Positions 333 to 12,525 of a stretch of DNA of 12,526 nt are shown one piece after another. Each line of letters begins with the position of its first letter. Position 1 is the first letter of the stretch. The notes under the pieces are model-generated. The model was not told the origin of the DNA. It searched no databases and worked only from the letters and a program-made list of their open reading frames with translations. The translations under genes and the position numbers were made by a program. Location of the stretch: assembly GCA_000004985.1 (NCBI GenBank), contig GG738990.1; one strand, written 5' to 3'. This DNA is from Naegleria gruberi (lineage: Eukaryota).

Positions 333-818
333 CTACAAGTTGGAATAACGTTCATTGCTATGGGTGGATTCCTGCAAAATAGACTGATGTAATTCTACAA
401 AGTACCAATTATCAGCAAAGAATTCATCATCCAACTTGTTTGTATTTCTATTGGGATTCGATGATGCTGAAGAAGGATTTGAAGAGTTTCCATGATTACG
501 TAGATAGATATCCTTCGCAGAGGCTGGCAATGGATTCAACAAATCAGCCCCAGCACTCTTATAATCATAATTTGGAGTGGAAGGCATTACTATAAGAGAG
601 GCATTGCCATTCACTTTGCAAATACCATTCTCTACCAAGAGACCCAAGCTTGCTCTCATATCACCAGATAGTTTGGCAAATTCGGAGAGTCCCATCTGTG
701 CCATTAATTTTCCTCCTCCATTGTTGTTGTTATTATTCATGGCACTACTTCCGTTATTGCTTGTTGTTGTGCTTCTTCTGTTGGTGTTTGATGATGGTGA
801 AAAGCCTTGTTGTTGCAT
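333..818 (-). CDS. hypothetical Asn/Ser/Gln-rich low-complexity protein, 161 aa, unknown function
   Basis: Complete ORF on the minus strand. ATG at 818..816 sits in an A-rich context (aaaATGc). The TAG stop is at 335..333. The N-terminal half is low-complexity (a poly-N run, S/T-rich). The C-terminal half is more ordered (…DIYLRNHG…NWYFVELHQSIL…). The plus-strand ORFs 577..852 and 650..841 are the antisense mirror of the low-complexity codons (poly-L/V) and are rejected. Confidence 0.55.
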   Translation of the reverse strand: MQQQGFSPSSNTNRRSTTTSNNGSSAMNNNNNNGGGKLMAQMGLSEFAKLSGDMRASLGLLVENGICKVNGNASLIVMPSTPNYDYKSAGADLLNPLPASAKDIYLRNHGNSSNPSSASSNPNRNTNKLDDEFFADNWYFVELHQSILQESTHSNERYSNL

Positions 819-905: not shown

Positions 906-1145
906 TTATCGTTCTTCTTCTTGACTGGATGATGATTTACTCTTGGACATGGACTCGAGAGCTTTCTTTCTCAGTGTTTCCGAAGTGGAATTTTCATTGG
1001 ATTTTCTTCTTGAACTAATATAATTGTGACCATCAGAGTCAGAGTCATCGGATGATGAAGGAGGTGGTGTCGGCTCTGATCTCTCAGATGATGGTTTCCT
1101 AGAGTTGTAAGAATATTTAGAGTGCTTTCTTGGTGGTGATCTGTT
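906..1145 (-). CDS. 3'-terminal coding segment (Ser/Arg/Asp-rich tail, …SEPTPPPSSSDDSDSDGHNYISSRRKSNENSTSETLRKKALESMSKSKSSSSQEEER*) of a gene whose body lies in the N-masked block
   Basis: There is a 79-codon open frame on the minus strand from 1145 down to 909. It ends at a TAA at 908..906. No ATG sits near its 5' end. In-frame stops lie at 1146..1151, just before the N run, so the segment must be joined by splicing or belong to a frame hidden in the gap. Its composition is typical of an RS/SR-like disordered tail. Confidence 0.3.
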   Translation of the reverse strand, partial: NRSPPRKHSKYSYNSRKPSSERSEPTPPPSSSDDSDSDGHNYISSRRKSNENSTSETLRKKALESMSKSKSSSSQEEER

Positions 1146-2519: not shown

Positions 2520-3581
2520 TTATTTTTCATTCTTTTTCAATATTTCTTCCATTAAAGAATCATTAATGACATCTTCATATAAATCTGCTGTTTCAGAGTG
2601 ATTCATTAAGCTCAAGATATATTTGATTACTGCATAAAAATCCTTCAATGGTATTCTAAGAGGTGACTTTTTGATTGTGCAGTATAATAAGCGAATGATA
2701 CAGTTTCGTATTTTCTCATTTGTGTTTTTGTACAACATCTCAATTCTTTCCTTAATAAAGTTGTGAACTTTCTCCTCTTGATTAACAATCATCCAATCGA
2801 AGAATGTTTTCCCATCCACTTCCAAACAGGTCTTGATTAGAACAAATAAATAAATGCATCCCAATGAGTAAATATCAACTGTTTCATACAGATTATTATT
2901 CGAAAGATGCTTTTCGAATAATTCTGGAGCTGCATACTCTCTTGTACCCTGAATCATTGTAGTCCTCACAAGATCCAATTCAGAAATCTTGCATTCATCA
3001 TGGTCCGAAATTTTAGGAACTATTTCACCTTGCACTCTATATATGAGAATGTTTTGAGGTTTCAAATCTCTGTGAATAATCTTGTTCTGATGTAAGTAAT
3101 CATATCCTTTCAGAATATCTCTGAATAGTAAAGTAACTTCCTTCAACGATAGACTATATTCCCTATTTTTGTTCTGAGATACTTCTCCAATTCGAAATCT
3201 TTCATTTCCAGAATCGGAATTTACTACTGAATGGTTTAGAATATATTTTTCCAAATCCAGTGGAGCTAATTCCATCACAACGAAATGTAAATTCTCAAAT
3301 GATTGTTCCAACACTCCATAATCTAAATAACGAACAACATTGGGATGATTAAACTCCTTTGCTCTTTTGAATGCCTCAATTAGTCTGGGTAAATCATTAG
3401 AAACTGTACTCTCTCTGTAAGTTTTCAAAGCAGCCACCATATTGAGCTTTTTATCCTTCACCTTAGCAATAACACCCTTACCAATACCGATTGTCCTTTC
3501 AAGTATTTCGAATCTTTCATTGGTGTCAATAGGATTTTTGATTTCATTTTCATTTTGTATCCTGTCAAGCTTTGTAAAATA
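2520..3581 (-). CDS. protein kinase domain 2 (Ser/Thr-type, canonical catalytic loop), C-terminal part of the tandem-kinase gene
   Basis: The frame is open from 3581, just after a TGA at 3584..3582, down to a TAA at 2522..2520. The track ORF 2520..3461 'starts' at GTG, which is not a real start. Upstream of that GTG the same frame encodes subdomain I (…NERFEILERTIGIGKGVIAKV…). Further motifs are VAALK (beta-3 Lys), an alphaC Glu (LIEAFKRAKEF), HFVVMELAP (hinge), IIHRDLKPQNILI (catalytic loop), KISDHDECK (DFG replaced by DHD), GTREYAAPE and DIYSLG. There is no ATG between the upstream stop and the glycine loop, so this domain cannot be a stand-alone gene. Confidence 0.75.
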   Translation of the reverse strand, partial: YFTKLDRIQNENEIKNPIDTNERFEILERTIGIGKGVIAKVKDKKLNMVAALKTYRESTVSNDLPRLIEAFKRAKEFNHPNVVRYLDYGVLEQSFENLHFVVMELAPLDLEKYILNHSVVNSDSGNERFRIGEVSQNKNREYSLSLKEVTLLFRDILKGYDYLHQNKIIHRDLKPQNILIYRVQGEIVPKISDHDECKISELDLVRTTMIQGTREYAAPELFEKHLSNNNLYETVDIYSLGCIYLFVLIKTCLEVDGKTFFDWMIVNQEEKVHNFIKERIEMLYKNTNEKIRNCIIRLLYCTIKKSPLRIPLKDFYAVIKYILSLMNHSETADLYEDVINDSLMEEILKKNEK

Positions 3582-4365
3582 TCACAAACTTGATTGATTT
3601 TAGGTCTCTTTGTTGGATCAAGTGACAACATTTGAATAATTAGAGCTTGAACAATCTTATTGATGTGAGAATGTGTTTTGAGGAGAAGTGACACATTATC
3701 ATGTAGCCAATCTTCAGCAGAACTGCACAATTCTCCCAGAGTTCTCGCTCCTAGTACTGGATGAGTTAACAAGGTTTGACCTGTCAACATTTCAAAAAAA
3801 GAAACTCCACAAGAAAACACGTCAGAAGGAAGAGATAGTCTCTCAAATGACTCAGGTGCAAGGTAGCTTATGGTTCCAATAGCGCCTGAACACTCAATAT
3901 ATTCTATTCCATTCTCCACCTCAAGGTCCTCACTCAACATCTCAATGCAATCAAAATCTATCAACCTAATACAATCTCCATCCTTTACAAAGTTTGCCGG
4001 TTTCACATCTCCATAGATAATTCTCTCCTTGTGTAGTTCATTAATTCCCAAAGCCACTTGCAACATTTCAGTCACTGTAAATTCATACTTTCTTTTAATG
4101 AGTTGTTTCAAATCTCCCTCTTTAGCATAATCCATTATCATTACTATTGAATCTTCTTTTGGAGTGATTTTTTTTGGAAGTAGGACATATTTTTGATTCA
4201 ATTTAAGTTTAGTTAGCACTAAATATTTGTGTAAAAATTCATTTGCTAAATTATCCGACCGCACAACTTTCATGGCAGAACCATCCGAGAGAGGTATAAG
4301 CTTCCATAGGCACCTCTGGCAAATAATTCCGTCACGTTAAGACCATGAGGAACGTATTCTGCCAT
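3458..4365 (-). CDS. protein kinase domain 1 (atypical motifs), N-terminal part of the tandem-kinase gene; ATG at 4365
   Basis: ATG at 4365..4363 in an A-rich context (aaaaaaaATGg). It gives MAEYVPHGLNVTELFARGAYGSLYLS, where FARGAYGSLY is the glycine-rich loop. That frame then meets a TGA stop. A frame offset by 2 nt continues as DGSAMKVV… (beta-3 AxK) and forms the 271-aa track ORF 3458..4273. Further motifs are DLKQLIK and IVMIMDYAKEGDL (hinge), RIIYGDVKPANF (HRD replaced by YGD; the catalytic Asp and the Lys/Asn are kept), LIDFDCIE (DFG replaced by DFD), SYLAPES, and a typical domain end at …KRPKINQVCDILQSL. Confidence 0.7.
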
Positions 4366-4543: not shown

Positions 4544-5554
4544 CTATATTGCTTTGAAGATAACGACTGGTTGAGGAATGGTTGAATAATTTGTAGAGGA
4601 TGACTTTCTTTTCATTAATTTGGAGAATGAATAATTGACAAACTTGGCGAAACAATTTGCAAAAAAGTTGATCATTCTTCTTGGGATACTAATTTGTTCC
4701 AACATACTGACATCTCTCTTTGGGAAAATATGATGATTGTCATGCTCATTGACATGATGAATGTGATATCCAATCAAAATTTCAAGAACAAGATTAATGT
4801 CCACGGTTTGTTGGAAAGGATAAAAGTTGTCAACCAATGAATCGAACCATCCTTCTTCATGAGCTAATGTTGTGAAAACCATAAAGATTACAGTCATGAC
4901 AAGTCTACACATTACCAAATGAATTAAATAAGCAATAGGATTCATTAGCAAGAATGGAGCCAAGAGCAATACCAATCTAGCAAAGGTCATTGGAGCATAC
5001 TTCCACTTCATGTCTCTCTTCTTCTTCAAATAAAAGCTGATATAATTAAAATCAAAGAGTGAACTTCTCATGAATAACACCCAACGATTTGGAGATGATT
5101 TACACCAATAATCAGCATCTCTTTGCATGATTTGCTTATGTCTGTAGAGAATATCTGATGGTGTCAAGTAATCTTGTGCAATGTCCATTGAGTACTTTCT
5201 GCTATCTTGGCCATAGTTGAAATGATGATGAGAATCGTGGCCAATTTTTCCTGGCTTGAAGGTTAACAAGTGACCGAATCCAACTCCAAGCAAGAGGTCA
5301 ACAATTGGATTCAATGACTTTTCTTGGTGAAGTAAATTGTGATAGCACAAAGTCCATCTTCCACCACAAATAAGATAGACTAGTGGTAAGATCAACATTT
5401 GAGCAGGAATGTTAACATTAAAGTGGCTCATTGCGAGCATGGTACCAAGAGGGATGAATTGAGTGATCATGTTGAAAAAGAGGGAGGCATATTTGCTGTA
5501 AGGAACTTCGGTTCCATGGACTGGATGTCTTCCGTGAATCAATTGTCTGGTCAT
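4544..5554 (-). CDS. membrane fatty-acid desaturase-family protein (three His boxes; possibly sphingolipid-desaturase-like), 336 aa, intronless
   Basis: Complete ORF from ATG 5554..5552 (context ctacaaATGa) to TAG 4546..4544. His boxes: HNLLH (HX3H); about 35 aa later GHDSHHH (HX2HH); about 150 aa later HIHHVNEHDNHHIFP (HX2HH followed by hydrophobic-FP). This spacing, plus hydrophobic TM pairs before box 1 and between boxes 2 and 3, matches the FA_desaturase (di-iron, membrane) fold. It does not match the sterol-desaturase/FA-hydroxylase family, where boxes 1 and 2 are about 10 aa apart. The context TLCYHNLLH, HDSHHHFNYGQD and GYH…NEH…HH.FP loosely resembles dihydroceramide delta-4 desaturases. 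Confidence 0.7.
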   Translation of the reverse strand: MTRQLIHGRHPVHGTEVPYSKYASLFFNMITQFIPLGTMLAMSHFNVNIPAQMLILPLVYLICGGRWTLCYHNLLHQEKSLNPIVDLLLGVGFGHLLTFKPGKIGHDSHHHFNYGQDSRKYSMDIAQDYLTPSDILYRHKQIMQRDADYWCKSSPNRWVLFMRSSLFDFNYISFYLKKKRDMKWKYAPMTFARLVLLLAPFLLMNPIAYLIHLVMCRLVMTVIFMVFTTLAHEEGWFDSLVDNFYPFQQTVDINLVLEILIGYHIHHVNEHDNHHIFPKRDVSMLEQISIPRRMINFFANCFAKFVNYSFSKLMKRKSSSTNYSTIPQPVVIFKAI

Positions 5555-5623: not shown

Positions 5624-8600
5624 NNNNNNNNNNNNNNNNNNNNNNNNNNNNNNNNNNNNNNNNNNNNNNNNNNNNNNNNNNNNNNNNNNNNNNNNNNNNN
5701 NNNNNNNNNNNNNNNNNNNNNNNNNNNNNNNNNNNNNNNNNNNNNNNNNNNNNNNNNNNNNNNNNNNNNNNNNNNNNNNNNNNNNNNNNNNNNNNNNNNN
5801 NNNNNNNNNNNNNNNNNNNNNNNNNNNNNNNNNNNNNNNNNNNNNNNNNNNNNNNNNNNNNNNNNNNNNNNNNNNNNNNNNNNNNNNNNNNNNNNNNNNN
5901 NNNNNNNNNNNNNNNNNNNNNNNNNNNNNNNNNNNNNNNNNNNNNNNNNNNNNNNNNNNNNNNNNNNNNNNNNNNNNNNNNNNNNNNNNNNNNNNNNNNN
6001 NNNNNNNNNNNNNNNNNNNNNNNNNNNNNNNNNNNNNNNNNNNNNNNNNNNNNNNNNNNNNNNNNNNNNNNNNNNNNNNNNNNNNNNNNNNNNNNNNNNN
6101 NNNNNNNNNNNNNNNNNNNNNNNNNNNNNNNNNNNNNNNNNNNNNNNNNNNNNNNNNNNNNNNNNNNNNNNNNNNNNNNNNNNNNNNNNNNNNNNNNNNN
6201 NNNNNNNNNNNNNNNNNNNNNNNNNNNNNNNNNNNNNNNNNNNNNNNNNNNNNNNNNNNNNNNNNNNNNNNNNNNNNNNNNNNNNNNNNNNNNNNNNNNN
6301 NNNNNNNNNNNNNNNNNNNNNNNNNNNNNNNNNNNNNNNNNNNNNNNNNNNNNNNNNNNNNNNNNNNNNNNNNNNNNNNNNNNNNNNNNNNNNNNNNNNN
6401 NNNNNNNNNNNNNNNNNNNNNNNNNNNNNNNNNNNNNNNNNNNNNNNNNNNNNNNNNNNNNNNNNNNNNNNNNNNNNNNNNNNNNNNNNNNNNNNNNNNN
6501 NNNNNNNNNNNNNNNNNNNNNNNNNNNNNNNNNNNNNNNNNNNNNNNNNNNNNNNNNNNNNNNNNNNNNNNNNNNNNNNNNNNNNNNNNNNNNNNNNNNN
6601 NNNNNNNNNNNNNNNNNNNNNNNNNNNNNNNNNNNNNNNNNNNNNNNNNNNNNNNNNNNNNNNNNNNNNNNNNNNNNNNNNNNNNNNNNNNNNNNNNNNN
6701 NNNNNNNNNNNNNNNNNNNNNNNNNNNNNNNNNNNNNNNNNNNNNNNNNNNNNNNNNNNNNNNNNNNNNNNNNNNNNNNNNNNNNNNNNNNNNNNNNNNN
6801 NNNNNNNNNNNNNNNNNNNNNNNNNNNNNNNNNNNNNNNNNNNNNNNNNNNNNNNNNNNNNNNNNNNNNNNNNNNNNNNNNNNNNNNNNNNNNNNNNNNN
6901 NNNNNNNNNNNNNNNNNNNNNNNNNNNNNNNNNNNNNNNNNNNNNNNNNNNNNNNNNNNNNNNNNNNNNNNNNNNNNNNNNNNNNNNNNNNNNNNNNNNN
7001 NNNNNNNNNNNNNNNNNNNNNNNNNNNNNNNNNNNNNNNNNNNNNNNNNNNNNNNNNNNNNNNNNNNNNNNNNNNNNNNNNNNNNNNNNNNNNNNNNNNN
7101 NNNNNNNNNNNNNNNNNNNNNNNNNNNNNNNNNNNNNNNNNNNNNNNNNNNNNNNNNNNNNNNNNNNNNNNNNNNNNNNNNNNNNNNNNNNNNNNNNNNN
7201 NNNNNNNNNNNNNNNNNNNNNNNNNNNNNNNNNNNNNNNNNNNNNNNNNNNNNNNNNNNNNNNNNNNNNNNNNNNNNNNNNNNNNNNNNNNNNNNNNNNN
7301 NNNNNNNNNNNNNNNNNNNNNNNNNNNNNNNNNNNNNNNNNNNNNNNNNNNNNNNNNNNNNNNNNNNNNNNNNNNNNNNNNNNNNNNNNNNNNNNNNNNN
7401 NNNNNNNNNNNNNNNNNNNNNNNNNNNNNNNNNNNNNNNNNNNNNNNNNNNNNNNNNNNNNNNNNNNNNNNNNNNNNNNNNNNNNNNNNNNNNNNNNNNN
7501 NNNNNNNNNNNNNNNNNNNNNNNNNNNNNNNNNNNNNNNNNNNNNNNNNNNNNNNNNNNNNNNNNNNNNNNNNNNNNNNNNNNNNNNNNNNNNNNNNNNN
7601 NNNNNNNNNNNNNNNNNNNNNNNNNNNNNNNNNNNNNNNNNNNNNNNNNNNNNNNNNNNNNNNNNNNNNNNNNNNNNNNNNNNNNNNNNNNNNNNNNNNN
7701 NNNNNNNNNNNNNNNNNNNNNNNNNNNNNNNNNNNNNNNNNNNNNNNNNNNNNNNNNNNNNNNNNNNNNNNNNNNNNNNNNNNNNNNNNNNNNNNNNNNN
7801 NNNNNNNNNNNNNNNNNNNNNNNNNNNNNNNNNNNNNNNNNNNNNNNNNNNNNNNNNNNNNNNNNNNNNNNNNNNNNNNNNNNNNNNNNNNNNNNNNNNN
7901 NNNNNNNNNNNNNNNNNNNNNNNNNNNNNNNNNNNNNNNNNNNNNNNNNNNNNNNNNNNNNNNNNNNNNNNNNNNNNNNNNNNNNNNNNNNNNNNNNNNN
8001 NNNNNNNNNNNNNNNNNNNNNNNNNNNNNNNNNNNNNNNNNNNNNNNNNNNNNNNNNNNNNNNNNNNNNNNNNNNNNNNNNNNNNNNNNNNNNNNNNNNN
8101 NNNNNNNNNNNNNNNNNNNNNNNNNNNNNNNNNNNNNNNNNNNNNNNNNNNNNNNNNNNNNNNNNNNNNNNNNNNNNNNNNNNNNNNNNNNNNNNNNNNN
8201 NNNNNNNNNNNNNNNNNNNNNNNNNNNNNNNNNNNNNNNNNNNNNNNNNNNNNNNNNNNNNNNNNNNNNNNNNNNNNNNNNNNNNNNNNNNNNNNNNNNN
8301 NNNNNNNNNNNNNNNNNNNNNNNNNNNNNNNNNNNNNNNNNNNNNNNNNNNNNNNNNNNNNNNNNNNNNNNNNNNNNNNNNNNNNNNNNNNNNNNNNNNN
8401 NNNNNNNNNNNNNNNNNNNNNNNNNNNNNNNNNNNNNNNNNNNNNNNNNNNNNNNNNNNNNNNNNNNNNNNNNNNNNNNNNNNNNNNNNNNNNNNNNNNN
8501 NNNNNNNNNNNNNNNNNNNNNNNNNNNNNNNNNNNNNNNNNNNNNNNNNNNNNNNNNNNNNNNNNNNNNNNNNNNNNNNNNNNNNNNNNNNNNNNNNNNN

Positions 8601-9080
8601 NNNNNNNNNNNNNNNNNNNNNNNNNNNNNNNNNNNNNNNNNNNNNNNNNNNNNNNNNNNNNNNNNNNNNNNNNNNNNNNNNNNNNNNNNNNNNNNNNNNN
8701 NNNNNNNNNNNNNNNNNNNNNNNNNNNNNNNNNNNNNNNNNNNNNNNNNNNNNNNNNNNNNNNNNNNNNNNNNNNNNNNNNNNNNNNNNNNNNNNNNNNN
8801 NNNNNNNNNNNNNNNNNNNNNNNNNNNNNNNNNNNNNNNNNNNNNNNNNNNNNNNNNNNNNNNNNNNNNNNNNNNNNNNNNNNNNNNNNNNNNNNNNNNN
8901 NNNNNNNNNNNNNNNNNNNNNNNNNNNNNNNNNNNNNNNNNNNNNNNNNNNNNNNNNNNNNNNNNNNNNNNNNNNNNNNNNNNNNNNNNNNNNNNNNNNN
9001 NNNNNNNNNNNNNNNNNNNNNNNNNNNNNNNNNNNNNNNNNNNNNNNNNNNNNNNNNNNNNNNNNNNNNNNNNNNNNNNN
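5624..9080. other. run of N (masked or unsequenced, 3457 nt); an isolated n also at 9173
   Basis: Literal n characters. The track ORFs 5418..9194, 5563..9084, 5586..9158 and most of 5620..9513 are X artefacts. Confidence 1.
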
Positions 9081-9474
9081 ATAGTCCTTTACTTGTTTCG
9101 ATGTAAATGTCTCCTCTCCAAACATGTTTACCAAATACATTACTTTCCAAAGTTTTAAATAGTGTAATAGTTNTGCGTAATAGGATTGATTCAATATCTA
9201 TATCCATTTCCTGAGCTGCCTCTTCGCATTTTTCATCCACAAGTGCACCATTATAAAGTAAACATTCAATTATCTCAATATAATTTCCCATAATTGCAGC
9301 GTAGAGAGGAGAAACCTCCCCTTCATTGACACTAATATTTCTGAATTGCAATAATAATTTGACAATTTCCAAATATCCTCTTTTGCATGCTGCATAAAGT
9401 GGCGTAGTTAAATAAGGATAATCACTACTATCGTGCTCTAAAGTACTATAAACATATTCATTATTCGTTGGTTC
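9081..9474 (-). CDS. ankyrin-repeat protein, exon 2 (partial; continues into the N block)
   Basis: The frame is open from 9474 down to the gap edge. It encodes EPTNNEYVYSTLEHDSSDYPYLTTPLYAACKRGYLEIVKLLLQFRNISVNEGEVSPLYAAIMGNYIEIIECLLYNGALVDEK… (two more ANK repeats) and then non-repeat sequence. It joins in phase 0 to exon 1 across a GTAAGT…CAG intron. Confidence 0.7.
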
Positions 9475-9517
9475 CTGACACAATGAAAAAATTACTAAAC
9501 AGGAACTATCCACTTAC
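9475..9517 (-). other. spliceosomal intron, 43 nt (GTAAGT…tgtgtCAG)
   Basis: Minus strand: …AAT TAT GAT|GTAAGTggatagttcctgtttagtaattttttcattgtgtcAG|GAA CCA ACG…. The donor matches the fungal/metazoan consensus GTAAGT. A pyrimidine-rich stretch precedes the CAG. Splicing joins two ANK-repeat reading frames that otherwise differ by one frame, and it removes the in-frame TAG at 9508..9506. Confidence 0.75.
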
Positions 9518-9967
9518 ATCATAATTGAAAATAGCTCTGTTAACTTCAATATCCTCAAATTTCAATAACCATTTAACCATTTCATAATCACCTATTTTAC
9601 AAGCATAATACAGTGGAAAATCTTGTTTATCATAATGTTGAAATGAAGTACTCATTAGATAACAACCATCATTAACATTTATGCCATCAATTGTTAATAA
9701 TAACTTTACAATATCTCTAAAACCCCGCATATAGGCAGCAAATAGATTTGAACAATAATCTGTATAGCAGTGCACTCCCTTGTTGATATTGACTCGTCGT
9801 CCCGTAGCTAATAATAATTTAACAATTGCAATATTTCCGAGTTTACAAGCAGCATATAATGGAGAGGAATAGGAATATTGATCATTAATATCAACTACTT
9901 CATCACCTGATAATAATAATTGAACTTGCGAAACATCACCATTCTTACAGGCTTTGTTGAGAGACAT
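9518..9967 (-). CDS. ankyrin-repeat protein, exon 1 (ATG at 9967; four ANK repeats)
   Basis: ATG at 9967..9965 in the context aaaaaaATGt. It encodes MSLNKACKNGDVSQVQLLLSG…PLYAACKLGNIAIVKLLLATGRRVNINKG…LFAAYMRGFRDIVKLLLTIDGINVNDG…PLYYACKIGDYEMVKWLLKFEDIEVNRAIFNYD. The ANK repeat consensus (-PL--A---G-–-VK-LL--GA-VN) has a period of about 33 aa. Confidence 0.8.
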
Positions 9968-10149
9968 TTTTTTAATTACTTTTTACTGCAAATTTGAATT
10001 TTGCACTCGATAATTGAACCTTTTGTTTGGGTTTTTTAATTGTACAACTTTCCTTTACTTGAGTATTGCGGCAAATGGTTTTTTACTTGGGAACTTTACA
10101 TATATTAATTTATTAAGAATTTACAGAATAACTGAATAAGAAGCCGACA

Positions 10150-10161
10150 TAGCTCAGTTGG
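10150..10161 (+). promoter_or_regulatory. internal Pol III A box (TAGCTCAGTTGG)
   Basis: Matches TRGCNNAGTGG at tRNA positions 8-19. Confidence 0.6.
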
Positions 10162-10193
10162 GAGAGCGTAAGACTGAAGATCTTAAGGTCCCT

Positions 10194-10204
10194 GGTTCGA
10201 TCCC
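10194..10204 (+). promoter_or_regulatory. internal Pol III B box (GGTTCGATCCC)
   Basis: Matches GGTTCGANTCC at tRNA positions 52-62. Confidence 0.6.
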
Positions 10205-10217
10205 TGGTGTCGGCAAA

Positions 10218-10221: not shown

Positions 10222-10557
10222 AGTGTCTTTGATAATGCTTGTTTTGGTTGTTTGATTTTCCTTTGTATTCATCTTTTTAGATATTTGTACAACAGATTCC
10301 AATTCTGCACAATCAATGAGCTCGGTAGAGCTTGAAATCTTCTTGATGGCATTAAAATCCAAATGAATTGTAGTGACTGGAATTTCTTTTTCTGGAATTC
10401 CATCATCAAAGAAGAAAACTTCTTCCTCCTCTTCCTCAGGTTTTGATGTAAATGACGAAATTGATTTAATAACATTAGATACGATGATAATGCATTTGTA
10501 ATAAATCAAATCTGAAATGAAAAGTTCAATAAATAATTTTTAAAAAAAAATAGCACG

Positions 10558-11385
10558 ATGAGTCTTTGCTTGTTAACCGATAACGAATTGATGTGTTCCG
10601 ATACATTGATGCACTCATTTCTATTTCTTGATTTATCAACCTTGATTGCTTCATGCTCTCTAGTTTCCAAACAATTCAATCGAGTGGCAAAGAGCAATCC
10701 AATATGGCAAATATTATATGACAAGTGGATGTTTGATAATATGAATGAATTAATCATGAGGAATTTATTAATTGTTTTAAATTATCAAGTGATCAGGAAA
10801 AGCAGGAAATTATAGAAGATTGGACTGAACCAAATGACATGGGCCCTTTTTATTGGTTTCGTAAATGTATGGAAATATTAGAATGTTTGCCAAGATTGGA
10901 TTTAAAAGATGAGGAAGGTGAATATGGAACATTTTACTACAAACTGAATAATCGTAATGCAGCAACTGAATCCCACTTAAAGTTGGCTACCATTTTGGCA
11001 ATAATTTATGGTGACTATTCCTTTTCACTTCTTTCAGATTCTGTTGTGATTGCATTGAGAGGTTACTTGACAGAGAGTGAAATTGGAACTACGAGAAACA
11101 GAGAATACTAATCTTTGTGTGGCTCCATTTGTGAGTGGAATGTGGATGAATGGATTGATTGATGTTAAGGAATGTTGTTTCTTCAATGTTATGGACGCAT
11201 GTGGCTATTATAATCCATTAAATGGAGAGCTTTCCTATTCAAATGAATCAGATGAAGGAGGATTTTCATGGTGTCCCAGATTCTTCAATGCAAGTGGTAG
11301 ATATTATATCAACACGATTTGTGCATCCAATATTGGACCTAGTTCTATTAAAGTGGAGAAATCAGAACGTTTCGACTATTACTAG
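10558..11385 (+). CDS. F-box-like domain protein, read in three successive frames (disrupted gene, or unresolved very short introns)
   Basis: ATG at 10558 in the context aaaaaaatagcacgATGa. The N-terminus LLTDNELMCSDTLMHSFLFLDLSTLIASCSLVSKQFNRVAKSNPIWQ fits the F-box pattern (L.D.EL…L..L…L….VSK.w). Frame 1 stops at 10813..10815. Frame 0 is open 10761..11108 (…SSDQEKQEIIEDWTEPNDMGPFYWFRKCMEILECLPRLDLKDEEGEYGTFYYKLNNRNAATESHLKLATILAIIYGDYSFSLLSDSVVIALRGYLTESEIGTTRNREY). Frame 1 is open again 11071..11382 (…NTNLCVAPFVSGMWMNGLIDVKECCFFNVMDACGYYNPLNGELSYSNESDEGGFSWCPRFFNASGRYYINTICASNIGPSSIKVEKSERFDYY). The F-box is paralogous to the N-terminus of the next gene (LVSKQFNRV…WQILYDKWMF versus LISKQLKVREYLEKYWKMVLYQ). 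Confidence 0.5.
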
Positions 11386-11534: not shown

Positions 11535-12117
11535 ATGCCACAACAACTCGTTGATCTTCCTCACGAACTGATTCTTCACATGATGGAATTTGTCATCATT
11601 ACCGATAATAGAACGATACGATTCGAGTCAAATATTAAAAATTTATGTAATTTTGAATTAATTTCCAAGCAATTAAAGGTTCGGGAATATTTGGAGAAAT
11701 ATTGGAAGATGGTCTTGTATCAATTTATTCATATTAGATTGGAAATTAATGAGGATGGAAAGGAGATGATTCAACCAATCAATCCTTGGGATGTTTGGAA
11801 GAAAAAAGATCAAACATTACAGGAATTTGTGGAGAGGAAGAGGTCGTTTAAGAGAAGTTTTGCAATTTTGAATGAAATGGAAAGGAGAAACTATTTGAAT
11901 ACCAATAAGGCTAATTTTAAACTTTGCATAACTGGACCTGGTGGATCAGGAATTCATAGTTTCATTCATAGATATTTAAATGATGTATTTTATGATCAAT
12001 ATGATTATTCAATAGATGACATATTTTACAAAACTATCCTATTTAATGAGAGAAAAGTTGAATTAGAAATTTGGGAGACTGGTTTTAGGAGTACTGATTA
12101 TTACTTGTTCCTGGAAT
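11535..12117 (+). CDS. F-box-like N-terminus plus the first half of a Ras-superfamily G domain (exon 1)
   Basis: ATG at 11535 in the context agaaaaaaaATGc. LVDLPHELILHMMEFVIITDNRTIRFESNIKNLCNFELISKQLKV fits the F-box pattern (LsdLPdEiLl.I…L). From about residue 134, NFKLCITGPGGSGIHSFIHRYLNDVFYDQYDYSIDDIFYKTILFNERKVELEIWETGFRS aligns residue-for-residue with Ras [61 protein letters not shown]. The exon ends in phase 1 at a GTAAGT donor. Confidence 0.75.
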
Positions 12118-12157
12118 GTAAGTTTCTATAATATTGTGTAGTATTTACATGAATTAG
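12118..12157 (+). other. spliceosomal intron, 40 nt (GTAAGT…aattAG)
   Basis: …ctg gaa t|GTAAGTttctataatattgtgtagtatttacatgaattAG|ca aaa cta…. The splice removes the TAA at 12129..12131 and restores the frame. The product …LFLE-S-KLKGARGYIVLLPIHADVDKYGVFERIIKSIVYMHDDESVPLLIGITQIDK aligns with Ras …[46 protein letters not shown]. The alternative acceptor at 12208 (a 91-nt intron) is also in frame, but it would delete the beta-4/alpha-3 segment. Confidence 0.6.
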
Positions 12158-12525
12158 CAAAACTAAAAGGAGCAAGGGGATATATTGTGCTTTTACCGAT
12201 ACACGCAGATGTTGACAAGTATGGGGTTTTTGAAAGAATTATTAAATCTATTGTATACATGCATGATGACGAATCAGTACCATTATTAATAGGTATCACT
12301 CAAATTGATAAGTTGGAGACCAATAGCTCACTAAATTTGGATCAAGTTAAACAAAAAGTTACTGATATAATGAATGTGTACTCGTGTTTAGATTTTGAAA
12401 TTGTTGAAACAAGTTCCAAGAGTAATATTAATATTCATACAGTCATAGAAAAAGCCCTTCTAAAAGGATATTTCTTCGAAGGATCCAAATATTGCAATAG
12501 AAGATTATTATGGAGAGGGTTATAA
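12158..12525 (+). CDS. second half of the Ras-like G domain (exon 2), with TAA at 12523..12525
   Basis: It encodes beta4-alpha3-beta5 (G4 position TQID in place of NKxD), alpha4, beta6 (ETSSKS; G5 SAK becomes SSK) and alpha5 (NINIHTVIEKALLKGY), then a short tail ending …CNRRLLWRGL* with no CAAX box. The track ORF 12187..12525 begins at a GTG inside this exon. Confidence 0.7.

Follow-up and report, generated by a model that had tools for sequence, protein, structure and literature searches.

We analysed a window of 12,526 bp, which is an entire leftover scaffold of the Naegleria gruberi NEG-M genome. Its minus strand (positions 4365-2520) encodes two full protein kinase domains between an ATG at 4365 and a TAA at 2522-2520. 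We conclude that the locus is an ordinary lineage-specific tandem kinase whose sequence either has errors from low coverage or reflects a recent inactivation. The preferred reading, to which we assign a probability of about 0.5, is a single gene of approximately 614 aa that combines a divergent kinase-like domain with a following kinase domain; its frame breaks would be artefactual, and the organism itself would have an unbroken gene. The searches revealed a single other gene of this type, likewise in N. gruberi.

Gene layout and frame breaks

The kinase locus uses three reading frames separated by two breaks, near positions 4290 and 3562. One frame holds the start codon and the glycine-rich loop of domain 1 (4365-4295), a second one the body of this domain (4284-3560), and a third one domain 2 (3560-2520). 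Without correction, the first frame ends at a TGA at 4272-4270, and the second one at a TGA at 3460-3458. The original prediction, made from the sequence alone, never called the gene frame-broken, and its mention of a "conceptually repaired protein" was the sole hint. The features of the locus are as follows.

4295-4365, minus strand: start codon and glycine-rich loop of domain 1, MAEYVPHGLNVTELFARGAYGSLYL, in the frame of ATG 4365
4320-4300, minus strand: ARGAYGS, glycine-rich loop of domain 1, aligned with SRGAFGKVYL of Greatwall
4285-4294, minus strand: frame break 1, within CCTCTCTCGG; removal of one CT or insertion of one base gives GSLYLSDGSAMKVV
3567-4284, minus strand: body of domain 1 (Pfam Pkinase, 3.2e-29, and alignments)
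4276-4262, minus strand: AMKVV with the β3 Lys of domain 1 (alignment)
4015-3992, minus strand: YGDVKPAN, non-RD catalytic loop of domain 1 (alignment)
3950-3958, minus strand: DFD replacing DFG in domain 1, aligned with the DFG of Greatwall, RSK1, CDK2 and PKA
3865-3851, minus strand: YLAPE of domain 1 (alignment)
3532-3566, minus strand: linker with frame break 2, ACAGGATACAAAATGAAAATGAAATCAAAAATCC; the homology of domain 1 stops at CDILQSLTG (3560)
2520-3560, minus strand: end of the linker, domain 2 and stop codon (Pfam Pkinase, 2.6e-30, and identity to the paralogue)
3491-3471, minus strand: IGIGKGV, short glycine-rich loop of domain 2 (alignment)
3437-3423, minus strand: VAALK of domain 2 (alignment)
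3383-3366, minus strand: LIEAFK with the αC Glu of domain 2 (alignment)
3074-3051, minus strand: HRDLKPQN of domain 2 (alignment)
2997-3005, minus strand: DHD replacing DFG in domain 2, kept in the paralogue
2936-2922, minus strand: YAAPE of domain 2 (alignment)
2876-2859, minus strand: DIYSLG of domain 2 (alignment)
2520-3440, minus strand: public model EFC35900.1 / XP_002668644.1 / NAEGRDRAFT_76437 of 306 aa, with 100% identity over query residues 48-353

The ATG at 4365 is located 180 bp from the upstream gene and has the context aaaaaaaATG, as do the annotated starts of the neighbouring genes. No such A-rich context was found ahead of domain 2 or at ATG 3440. The earlier statement that no ATG lies between the domains is correct for the part of the domain-2 frame that precedes the glycine-rich loop; it does not hold for the ATG at 3440 (MVAALK), the first one in this frame. 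The stop-free stretches comprise 292 and 353 codons in a sequence of 32% GC with stop-rich off-frames. Apart from the two indels, the 614 codons contain no in-frame stops and have lost no catalytic residues. Break 1 is inside a (CT)3 run, and about 730 bp separate it from break 2, a distance that may correspond to approximately one Sanger read. The tblastn match of the paralogue EFC38022 in the domain-2 frame begins at 3560.

We listed all possible GT/GC..AG introns with lengths of 18-400 nt, and the frame remains interrupted when plausible introns are allowed for. Introns were rejected as an explanation for the changes of frame, since the candidates remove the glycine-rich loop, the β3 Lys or subdomain XI, or measure 20 nt: no GT..AG intron at break 1 retains both the glycine-rich loop and the β3 Lys, and introns in the region of break 2 are either 20 nt long or cost subdomain XI. 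Programmed frameshifting is ruled against by the missing slippery heptamer X XXY YYZ at both breaks and by the missing downstream structure, as the 105 nt that follow each break are no more stably folded than shuffled sequences (z = +0.9 and +0.55).

EFC35900 is the sole public model at the locus and represents the 3' half only. It begins at the internal Met of MVAALK and lacks the glycine-rich loop. It is a shortened model of a gene that is, or was, a two-domain kinase, and the frame breaks would account for a domain-2-only model as an annotation artefact. The public annotation is thus corrected: EFC35900 / NAEGRDRAFT_76437 covers a part of a two-domain kinase.

A paralogue with the same domain layout

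EFC38022 (NAEGRDRAFT_59622, XP_002670766.1) is an intact predicted paralogue of 861 aa in the same genome. It has the same order of kinase-like domain, short linker (LQFLKG vs LQSLTG at the locus) and kinase. Domain 2 of the paralogue and domain 2 of the locus share 65% identity over 335 aa. The two genes have in common HRDLKPQN, DHD, the C-terminal tail, and a short glycine-rich loop (GCGKGV in EFC38022, GIGKGV at the locus). Unlike the locus, EFC38022 is an unbroken ORF. Since it is intact and has the same layout and DHD motif, the one-gene reading of the locus is most probably right. The original claim of one gene therefore stands insofar as the paralogue is a single protein, but the two domains of the locus itself do not form one ORF.

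EFC38022 also differs from the locus in several respects. It has approximately 213 additional N-terminal residues, for which tblastn gave no match anywhere in the window. Its domain 1 contains HRDLDPKN and NFN, thus lacking the Mg-binding Asp, and is barely alignable with domain 1 of the locus (21% identity over 42 aa). An insert of approximately 26 residues, which domain 2 of the locus contains, is missing from EFC38022. No relatives outside N. gruberi were found in protein searches and in scans of genome, viral and metagenome contigs; a bacterial, viral or metagenome origin was rejected, as the contig scans gave one unrelated bacterial kinase or nothing. The two loci constitute a tiny N. gruberi-specific tandem-kinase family, in which the catalytic domain has a conserved DHD in place of DFG. 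The family has no bearing on any long-standing open question.

The scaffold and its other genes

The scaffold of the kinase locus is small and gappy. Undetermined nucleotides (N) make up 38% of its length and are split over two gaps, with a single stray N at 9173. Four other genes of the scaffold are intact over approximately 2.9 kb of coding sequence, and a second scaffold, of 209,908 bp, contains copies of them at 96-99% identity. The genes on both flanks of the kinase locus have counterparts elsewhere. For the kinase model, protein searches found no counterpart at 90% identity or above (cluster size 1).

A clean intron of 40 nt (GTAAGT..TAG) is present in the Rab gene of this scaffold, and its splicing gives EFC35898 exactly. 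An F-box ORF switches frame at two places where ORFs overlap. The GC content at one of these frame junctions is coding-like at 40%, versus 22% in the confirmed Rab intron, and none of the seven spliced models tried for the F-box gene was present in the protein collection (0/7). A Ser-rich ORF at 909-1145, which was tried as a link to the neighbouring model EFC37095, has no words in common with any protein. Frame jumps on small leftover scaffolds of this kind should not be trusted as they stand.

Possible explanations of the frame breaks

We lean towards base-calling or assembly errors in a low-coverage, leftover Sanger scaffold as the source of both breaks. The intact gene would then read one extra base near 3562, and CCTCTCGG or one additional base near 4290. 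The poor scaffold, with its 38% of N, and the similar frame jumps of the F-box gene speak for an artefact. The breaks could also be real, in which case the same tandem-kinase gene would be a recently inactivated haplotype (a null allele or a pseudogene) yielding at most truncated fragments devoid of a glycine-rich loop. This is a serious possibility, which we nevertheless hold only tentatively. It would agree with the disruption of the kinase gene alone next to four intact neighbours that match the large-scaffold copies, and with the position of break 1 in a CT dinucleotide run, where replication slippage is plausible. Protein searches gave no allelic counterpart of the kinase, in contrast to the genes on either side of it, and this suggests that the kinase is dispensable or polymorphic. 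All these observations, together with the short β2-β3 hairpin that domain 1 retains after repair, count against an artefact. The small size of the family, with two loci only, and the very fast evolution of domain 1 also fit an inactivated copy. On the other hand, the low quality of the scaffold and the similar frame jumps of another gene on it speak against inactivation, as do 614 codons that show neither an in-frame stop nor the loss of a catalytic residue; given these clean codons, inactivation, if any, would be very recent.

Two separate genes or products are unlikely, although the corresponding ORFs are present (3458-4273, 271 aa, and 2520-3461) and EFC35900 was modelled from ATG 3440. They would be a domain-1 protein that ends at the TGA at 3460-3458 and a domain-2 protein that starts at the Met at 3440. 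Each of them would start within or past β3 and would lack the ATP-binding glycine-rich loop, which is encoded just upstream in another frame and, in the case of domain 2, is conserved in the paralogue. The paralogue is a single polypeptide, and ATG 3440 is devoid of the A-rich start context. We see hardly any room for real breaks bypassed by programmed -1 frameshifting or transcript slippage, which would yield domain 1 alone and the fusion at a fixed ratio. The same -1 shift is required at both breaks, and the run TCA AAA ATC in the linker would let a single tRNA slip into the frame of domain 2; however, neither break has the canonical heptamer, the downstream regions fold like shuffled sequence, two independent events would be required, and the intact paralogue has no need for recoding. 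Very improbable, too, is a regulated ratio of a pseudokinase and a pseudokinase-kinase fusion produced by recoding of genuine breaks, with DHD marking a subfamily with a two-Asp metal site.

Two kinase domains of unequal conservation

Under the preferred reading of one intact gene, the repaired protein comprises two adjoining kinase folds, as was originally proposed. Both domains score far above the Pfam cut-off for PF00069 (31.7 bits): domain 1 with 102.5 bits (3.2e-29, profile positions 30-258 of 263), and domain 2 with 106.1 bits (2.6e-30). The HMM alignments, with Greatwall/RSK and CDK2 as references, agree with the earlier manual placement of motifs in both domains.

Domain 2 has the β3 Lys, the αC Glu, the HRD Asp, the catalytic-loop Asn and the DFG Asp. 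In the numbering of the domain-2 ORF, K53, E70, D172, N177 and D193 occupy invariant or nearly invariant columns. The top solved-structure matches by sequence are CDK2, IKK and IRE1, not tyrosine kinases. The AlphaFold model of domain 2 (pLDDT 78, pTM 0.80) is a complete, generic kinase fold, for which the best structural matches are CDK2, DAPK1 and PknB. Its additional elements are a low-confidence insert of 21 residues and the conserved C-terminal tail. Domain 2 is probably a catalytic Ser/Thr kinase, as it retains the β3 Lys, the αC Glu, the HRD Asp, the Asn and the first Asp of DHD, and we infer that it is active.

Domain 1 keeps the Lys of AMK, the Asp and Asn of YGDVKPAN and the Asp of DFD, with DPTKRP as subdomain XI. 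The five-residue catalytic set is incomplete, as no Glu of domain 1 aligns with the αC Glu of Greatwall, CDK2 or PKA. The β2-β3 hairpin is unusually short even once repaired. The top solved-structure matches of domain 1 are AGC kinases (E about 1e-11); a search for relatives among 5.8 billion proteins gave a best score of 51 bits. The N-terminal domain is indeed the more degenerate one, as predicted: it lacks the αC Glu, has the non-RD motif YGD and a short β2-β3 hairpin, and barely aligns with domain 1 of the paralogue. Because it evolves fast, lacks the αC Glu and is non-RD, domain 1 is most likely a regulatory or scaffolding pseudokinase-like module, in parallel to other pseudokinase-kinase tandems.

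The D-x-D motif and internal duplication

The Gly of DFG is missing in both domains, which have DFD (domain 1) and DHD (domain 2). The original prediction treated D-x-D as unusual and took it to suggest an internal duplication. D-x-D is hardly a novelty, given that DFD occurs in approximately 1% of the kinase domains retrieved and characterises both MNK1/2 and the pseudokinase of RNase L. Acidic residues at DFG+2 are rare, with known precedents. DHD was found in no retrieved protein besides the locus and its paralogue, and this family provides a further natural example beside the few kinases with an acidic DFG+2 residue (MNK1/2, RNase L, WNG1). The motif is kept as DHD in domain 2 of EFC38022, and domain 1 of this paralogue has NFN.

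MNK1/2 have DFD in an otherwise competent Ser/Thr kinase, where the additional Asp promotes a DFD-out, ATP-occluding resting state (PMC3326643). RNase L coordinates Mg by both Asp residues of DFD and tightly binds ATP, and the activity of Toxoplasma WNG1 requires an acidic residue at DFG+2 (PMC6442604). By analogy with MNK1/2, which are active with DFD, the missing Gly would not be disqualifying for catalysis. The second Asp of DHD could serve as an additional ligand for Mg, in the manner of RNase L, or could favour a "DFG-out"-like autoinhibited state, as in MNK1/2. The DFD of MNK1/2 is the same as in domain 1 (3958-3950) and differs from the DHD of domain 2. MNKs are single-domain CaMK-family homologues with MNK-specific inserts (PMC3326643), and they do not appear among the 60 top solved-structure matches of domain 1. 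RNase L and WNG1 have the acidic DFG+2 residue in common with the locus and show no homology to it beyond the kinase fold; Pfam found neither ankyrin repeats nor the ribonuclease domain of RNase L in either half.

Overall similarity gives no support to an internal duplication. Unrelated bacterial Ser/Thr kinases reach 54-61 bits with domain 1, whereas domain 2 reaches 16 bits and takes rank 357. Duplication was rejected on this ranking, as hundreds of unrelated kinases are nearer to domain 1 than domain 2 is, or equally near. The sole point in its favour is the loss of the DFG Gly in all four domains of the two paralogues (DFD, NFN, DHD and DHD).

Comparison with other tandem kinases

Two kinase folds per polypeptide are known in JAK (JH2-JH1), GCN2 and RSK/MSK. 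Neither solved-structure matches nor fold comparison revealed a specific sequence affinity of the locus to any of these proteins. In JAK, FERM and SH2 domains precede a pair of pseudokinase and tyrosine kinase; the locus has neither and offers no upstream room for them. RSK/MSK pair an N-terminal AGC kinase, which bears the AGC C-terminal domain PF00433, with a CAMK-type kinase at the C-terminus; PF00433 has no match at the locus. In both halves of the repaired protein, Pfam gives kinase families only, with no FERM, SH2 or AGC C-terminal domain. In plant tandem-kinase immune proteins, both domains come from RLK/Pelle lineages; N. gruberi is a heterolobosean amoeba, and the top protein matches of the locus are not plant RLKs. 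The likeness to pseudokinase-kinase tandems and RSK/MSK consists in the presence of two folds, of which the N-terminal one is more degenerate or regulatory.

Two kinase domains in one frame-broken gene

The kinase locus encodes two complete protein kinase domains on the minus strand, between ATG 4365 and TAA 2522–2520. The Pfam Pkinase family matches domain 1, the N-terminal one, with E = 3.2e-29 and domain 2 with E = 2.6e-30, each about 70 bits over the curated cut-off, and chance is excluded as the source of these matches. The back-to-back arrangement of the original prediction thus stands, and all of its motif positions were reproduced when the domains were aligned to solved kinases with HMMER and to CDK2 and PKA with MAFFT. 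Domain 1 contains ARGAYGS, AMK, YGDVKPAN, DFD and APE; in these alignments it has no residue at the alphaC Glu position, and its beta2–beta3 hairpin is 3–4 residues short. Domain 2 contains IGIGKGV, VAALK, the alphaC Glu, HRDLKPQN, DHD, APE and DIYSLG, with a Gly-loop one residue below the GxGxxG length. The AlphaFold model of domain 2 (pLDDT 78, pTM 0.80) has a generic, complete kinase fold with no specific affinity to any kinase family. Its low-confidence 21-residue internal segment (ORF 120–140) falls inside about 26 residues that are gapped relative to the paralogue.

The gene spans three frames rather than one ORF, a frame change absent from the earlier account.

Segments and reading-frame breaks of the kinase gene
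4365–4295, minus strand: start and first Gly-loop; frame ends at TGA 4272–4270
4294–4285, minus strand: break 1, within CCTCTCTCGG; removing one CT gives ...GSLYLSDGSAMKVV
4284–3560, minus strand: domain 1 body, second frame; ends at TGA 3460–3458
about 3566–3560, minus strand: break 2, adjoining several A runs
3560–2520, minus strand: domain 2, third frame

Both breaks are -1 shifts, equivalent to the loss of one base or the gain of two. At break 2, domain 1 homology runs up to ...CDILQSLTG; from 3560 on, the domain 2 frame matches the paralogue. We enumerated every GT/GC..AG intron, and none keeps the kinase motifs except a 20-nt candidate that would cut out conserved C-terminal residues. 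No slippery heptamer was found at either break, and shuffled controls fold as well as the RNA downstream of the breaks.

The closest relative, EFC38022 (NAEGRDRAFT_59622, 861 aa), also comes from N. gruberi and is encoded on a 238,573-bp scaffold. This single polypeptide consists of a 213-aa N-terminal region (residues 1–213, matching no Pfam family), a kinase-like domain at about 214–535 with the motifs AIK, HRDLDPKN and NFN, a linker ending in LQFLKG, and a kinase domain sharing 65% identity with domain 2 (GCGKGV, HRDLKPQN, DHD and the entire tail included). The sole public model at our locus, retrieved by exhaustive HMMER search, is a 306-aa protein (EFC35900.1 / XP_002668644.1 / NAEGRDRAFT_76437) that is 100% identical to domain 2 from an internal Met. 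It starts at MVAALK, within strand beta3, and leaves out the Gly-loop encoded just upstream; domain 1 has no annotation in public models. A word-indexed protein search missed EFC35900 despite its 100% identity to half of the query, and the absence of a very close relative, for instance an allelic copy, from its results calls for caution.

The paralogue is one polypeptide, the aaaaaaaATG context of ATG 4365 recurs at annotated starts of neighbouring genes but not at ATG 3440, and the domain 2 frame has no ATG upstream of the Gly-loop. The locus is therefore one tandem gene, as had been proposed, and it is the frame break that gave rise to the EFC35900 model. Public databases annotate only half of this gene.

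Family size and the D-x-D motif

The tandem-kinase family is very small. Searches of 5.8 billion clustered proteins and of 1.84 billion representatives gave no close protein beyond the two from N. gruberi; after an E of 6.5e-130 the next match stands at 3.3e-40, and its DFG is canonical. The observations of the original prediction largely hold and its interpretation holds in part; the suggested internal duplication is not seen in overall similarity. Domain 1 reaches 54–61 bits with unrelated bacterial Ser/Thr kinases and 16 bits, at rank 357, with domain 2; it has no detectable match to the first domain of the paralogue in the similarity ranking. That domain of the paralogue reaches 32 bits with its own domain 2 and 30 bits with many other kinases. 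The DFG Gly is absent from all four domains in the MAFFT alignment (DFD, NFN, DHD, DHD), which is compatible, on thin evidence, with a common D-x-D ancestor.

The replacement of this Gly by Asp is rare and already known. Of 395 catalytic loops in the retrieved proteins, five (about 1%) precede a DFD, and DHD is confined to the N. gruberi pair. The proposed check of the paralogue for D-x-D gave DHD in its domain 2 and NFN in its first domain. In an unrelated 844-aa multi-kinase protein from the representative search (P0214), two kinase domains, at about 348 and 650, carry DFD; tandem kinases elsewhere have therefore undergone the Gly-to-Asp change as well. MNK1/2 are active kinases bearing DFD; their additional Asp favours the DFD-out conformation, with ATP occluded, and the D-to-G mutant can take both states (PMC3326643). 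Mg is bound by both Asp of the DFD in the RNase L pseudokinase, which gives tight ATP binding, and Toxoplasma WNG1 needs an acidic residue at this position for its activity (PMC6442604).

Domain 1 is fast-evolving, non-RD and devoid of the alphaC Glu. The first domain of the paralogue has also lost the Mg-binding Asp, having Asn at both Asp positions of D-F-D; as NFN replaces DFG, its sequence clearly reads as that of a pseudokinase. We infer that domain 2 is most likely a working Ser/Thr kinase, whose second Asp may tune metal binding or autoinhibition, and domain 1 a regulatory or scaffolding pseudokinase-like module. In its way of working the locus can be likened to JAK-, GCN2- and RSK-type tandems; it lacks the accessory domains that define these families, and sequence affinity likewise speaks against membership.

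Scaffold context and origin of the breaks

Other features of the scaffold
336–818, minus strand: EFC35899, by exact look-up of the ORF
909–1145, minus strand: Ser/Pro-rich open frame extending into the first gap
1153–2434 and 5624–9080: runs of N, plus a stray N at 9173
4547–5554, minus strand: EFC35901, fatty-acid-desaturase-like membrane protein, by exact look-up; Pfam FA_desaturase 8e-10
9509–9967, minus strand: EFC35902, ankyrin-repeat protein, by exact look-up of the ORF
10143–10215, plus strand: tRNA-Phe (GAA), between the ankyrin-repeat and F-box genes
10558–11385, plus strand: F-box ORF; Pfam F-box 7e-06
11535–12525, plus strand: EFC35898, Rab-family small GTPase, 316 aa, exact match once a 40-nt intron is spliced

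By exact look-up of three of its ORFs, the window is an entire 12,526-bp leftover scaffold of Naegleria gruberi NEG-M. N makes up 38% of the scaffold; the runs look like assembly gaps and the N at 9173 like a low-quality base. The window does not occur in bacterial, viral or metagenome DNA collections. Since EFC35899 and EFC35901 have copies 96% and 99% identical, respectively, on a 209,908-bp scaffold, it most likely represents a second haplotype that was left unmerged, or a duplicate of very recent origin. The twin of EFC35901, EFC37096, differs at 5 of 336 residues; the kinase start is 180 bp downstream of the EFC35901 gene.

What the locus carries is a lineage-specific tandem kinase gene of an ordinary kind; it is either frame-broken or mis-sequenced, and the scaffold is of poor quality. 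We favour a sequencing artefact over a real lesion at odds of roughly 50:38. The scaffold is a leftover with gaps, and the distance between the breaks, about 730 bp, is close to the length of one Sanger read. The two indels aside, 614 codons contain no stop and no lost catalytic residue, with the off-frames full of stops. The F-box ORF likewise switches frame twice (overlapping ORFs 10537–10812, 10749–11108 and 11071–11382), and one of its junctions is coding-like (40% GC, versus 22% for the confirmed intron). A real lesion would agree with the intactness of four other scaffold genes, the confinement of both breaks to this one gene and the position of break 1 inside a dinucleotide run; moreover, no counterpart of EFC35900 was found at at least 90% identity, and both flanking genes have one.

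The frame changes of the F-box ORF bear on the sequence quality of the scaffold. Its candidate introns are 59 nt (19% GC) and 40 nt (40% GC, coding-like), and none of seven spliced versions equals a public protein. Frameshifts resembling those of the kinase gene may be present in this ORF too. The Ser/Pro-rich frame shares no words with any of 5.8 billion collected proteins, and may represent either the 3' terminus of a gene without annotation or low-complexity, non-coding DNA. The tRNA-Phe gene is overlapped by a spurious minus-strand ORF. The intron of EFC35898 (GTAAGT..TAG, 12118–12157) is 40 nt long with 22% GC; the protein has a long N-terminal extension opening with the F-box-like LVDLPHELILHMMEF, and its stop codon sits right at the end of the scaffold.
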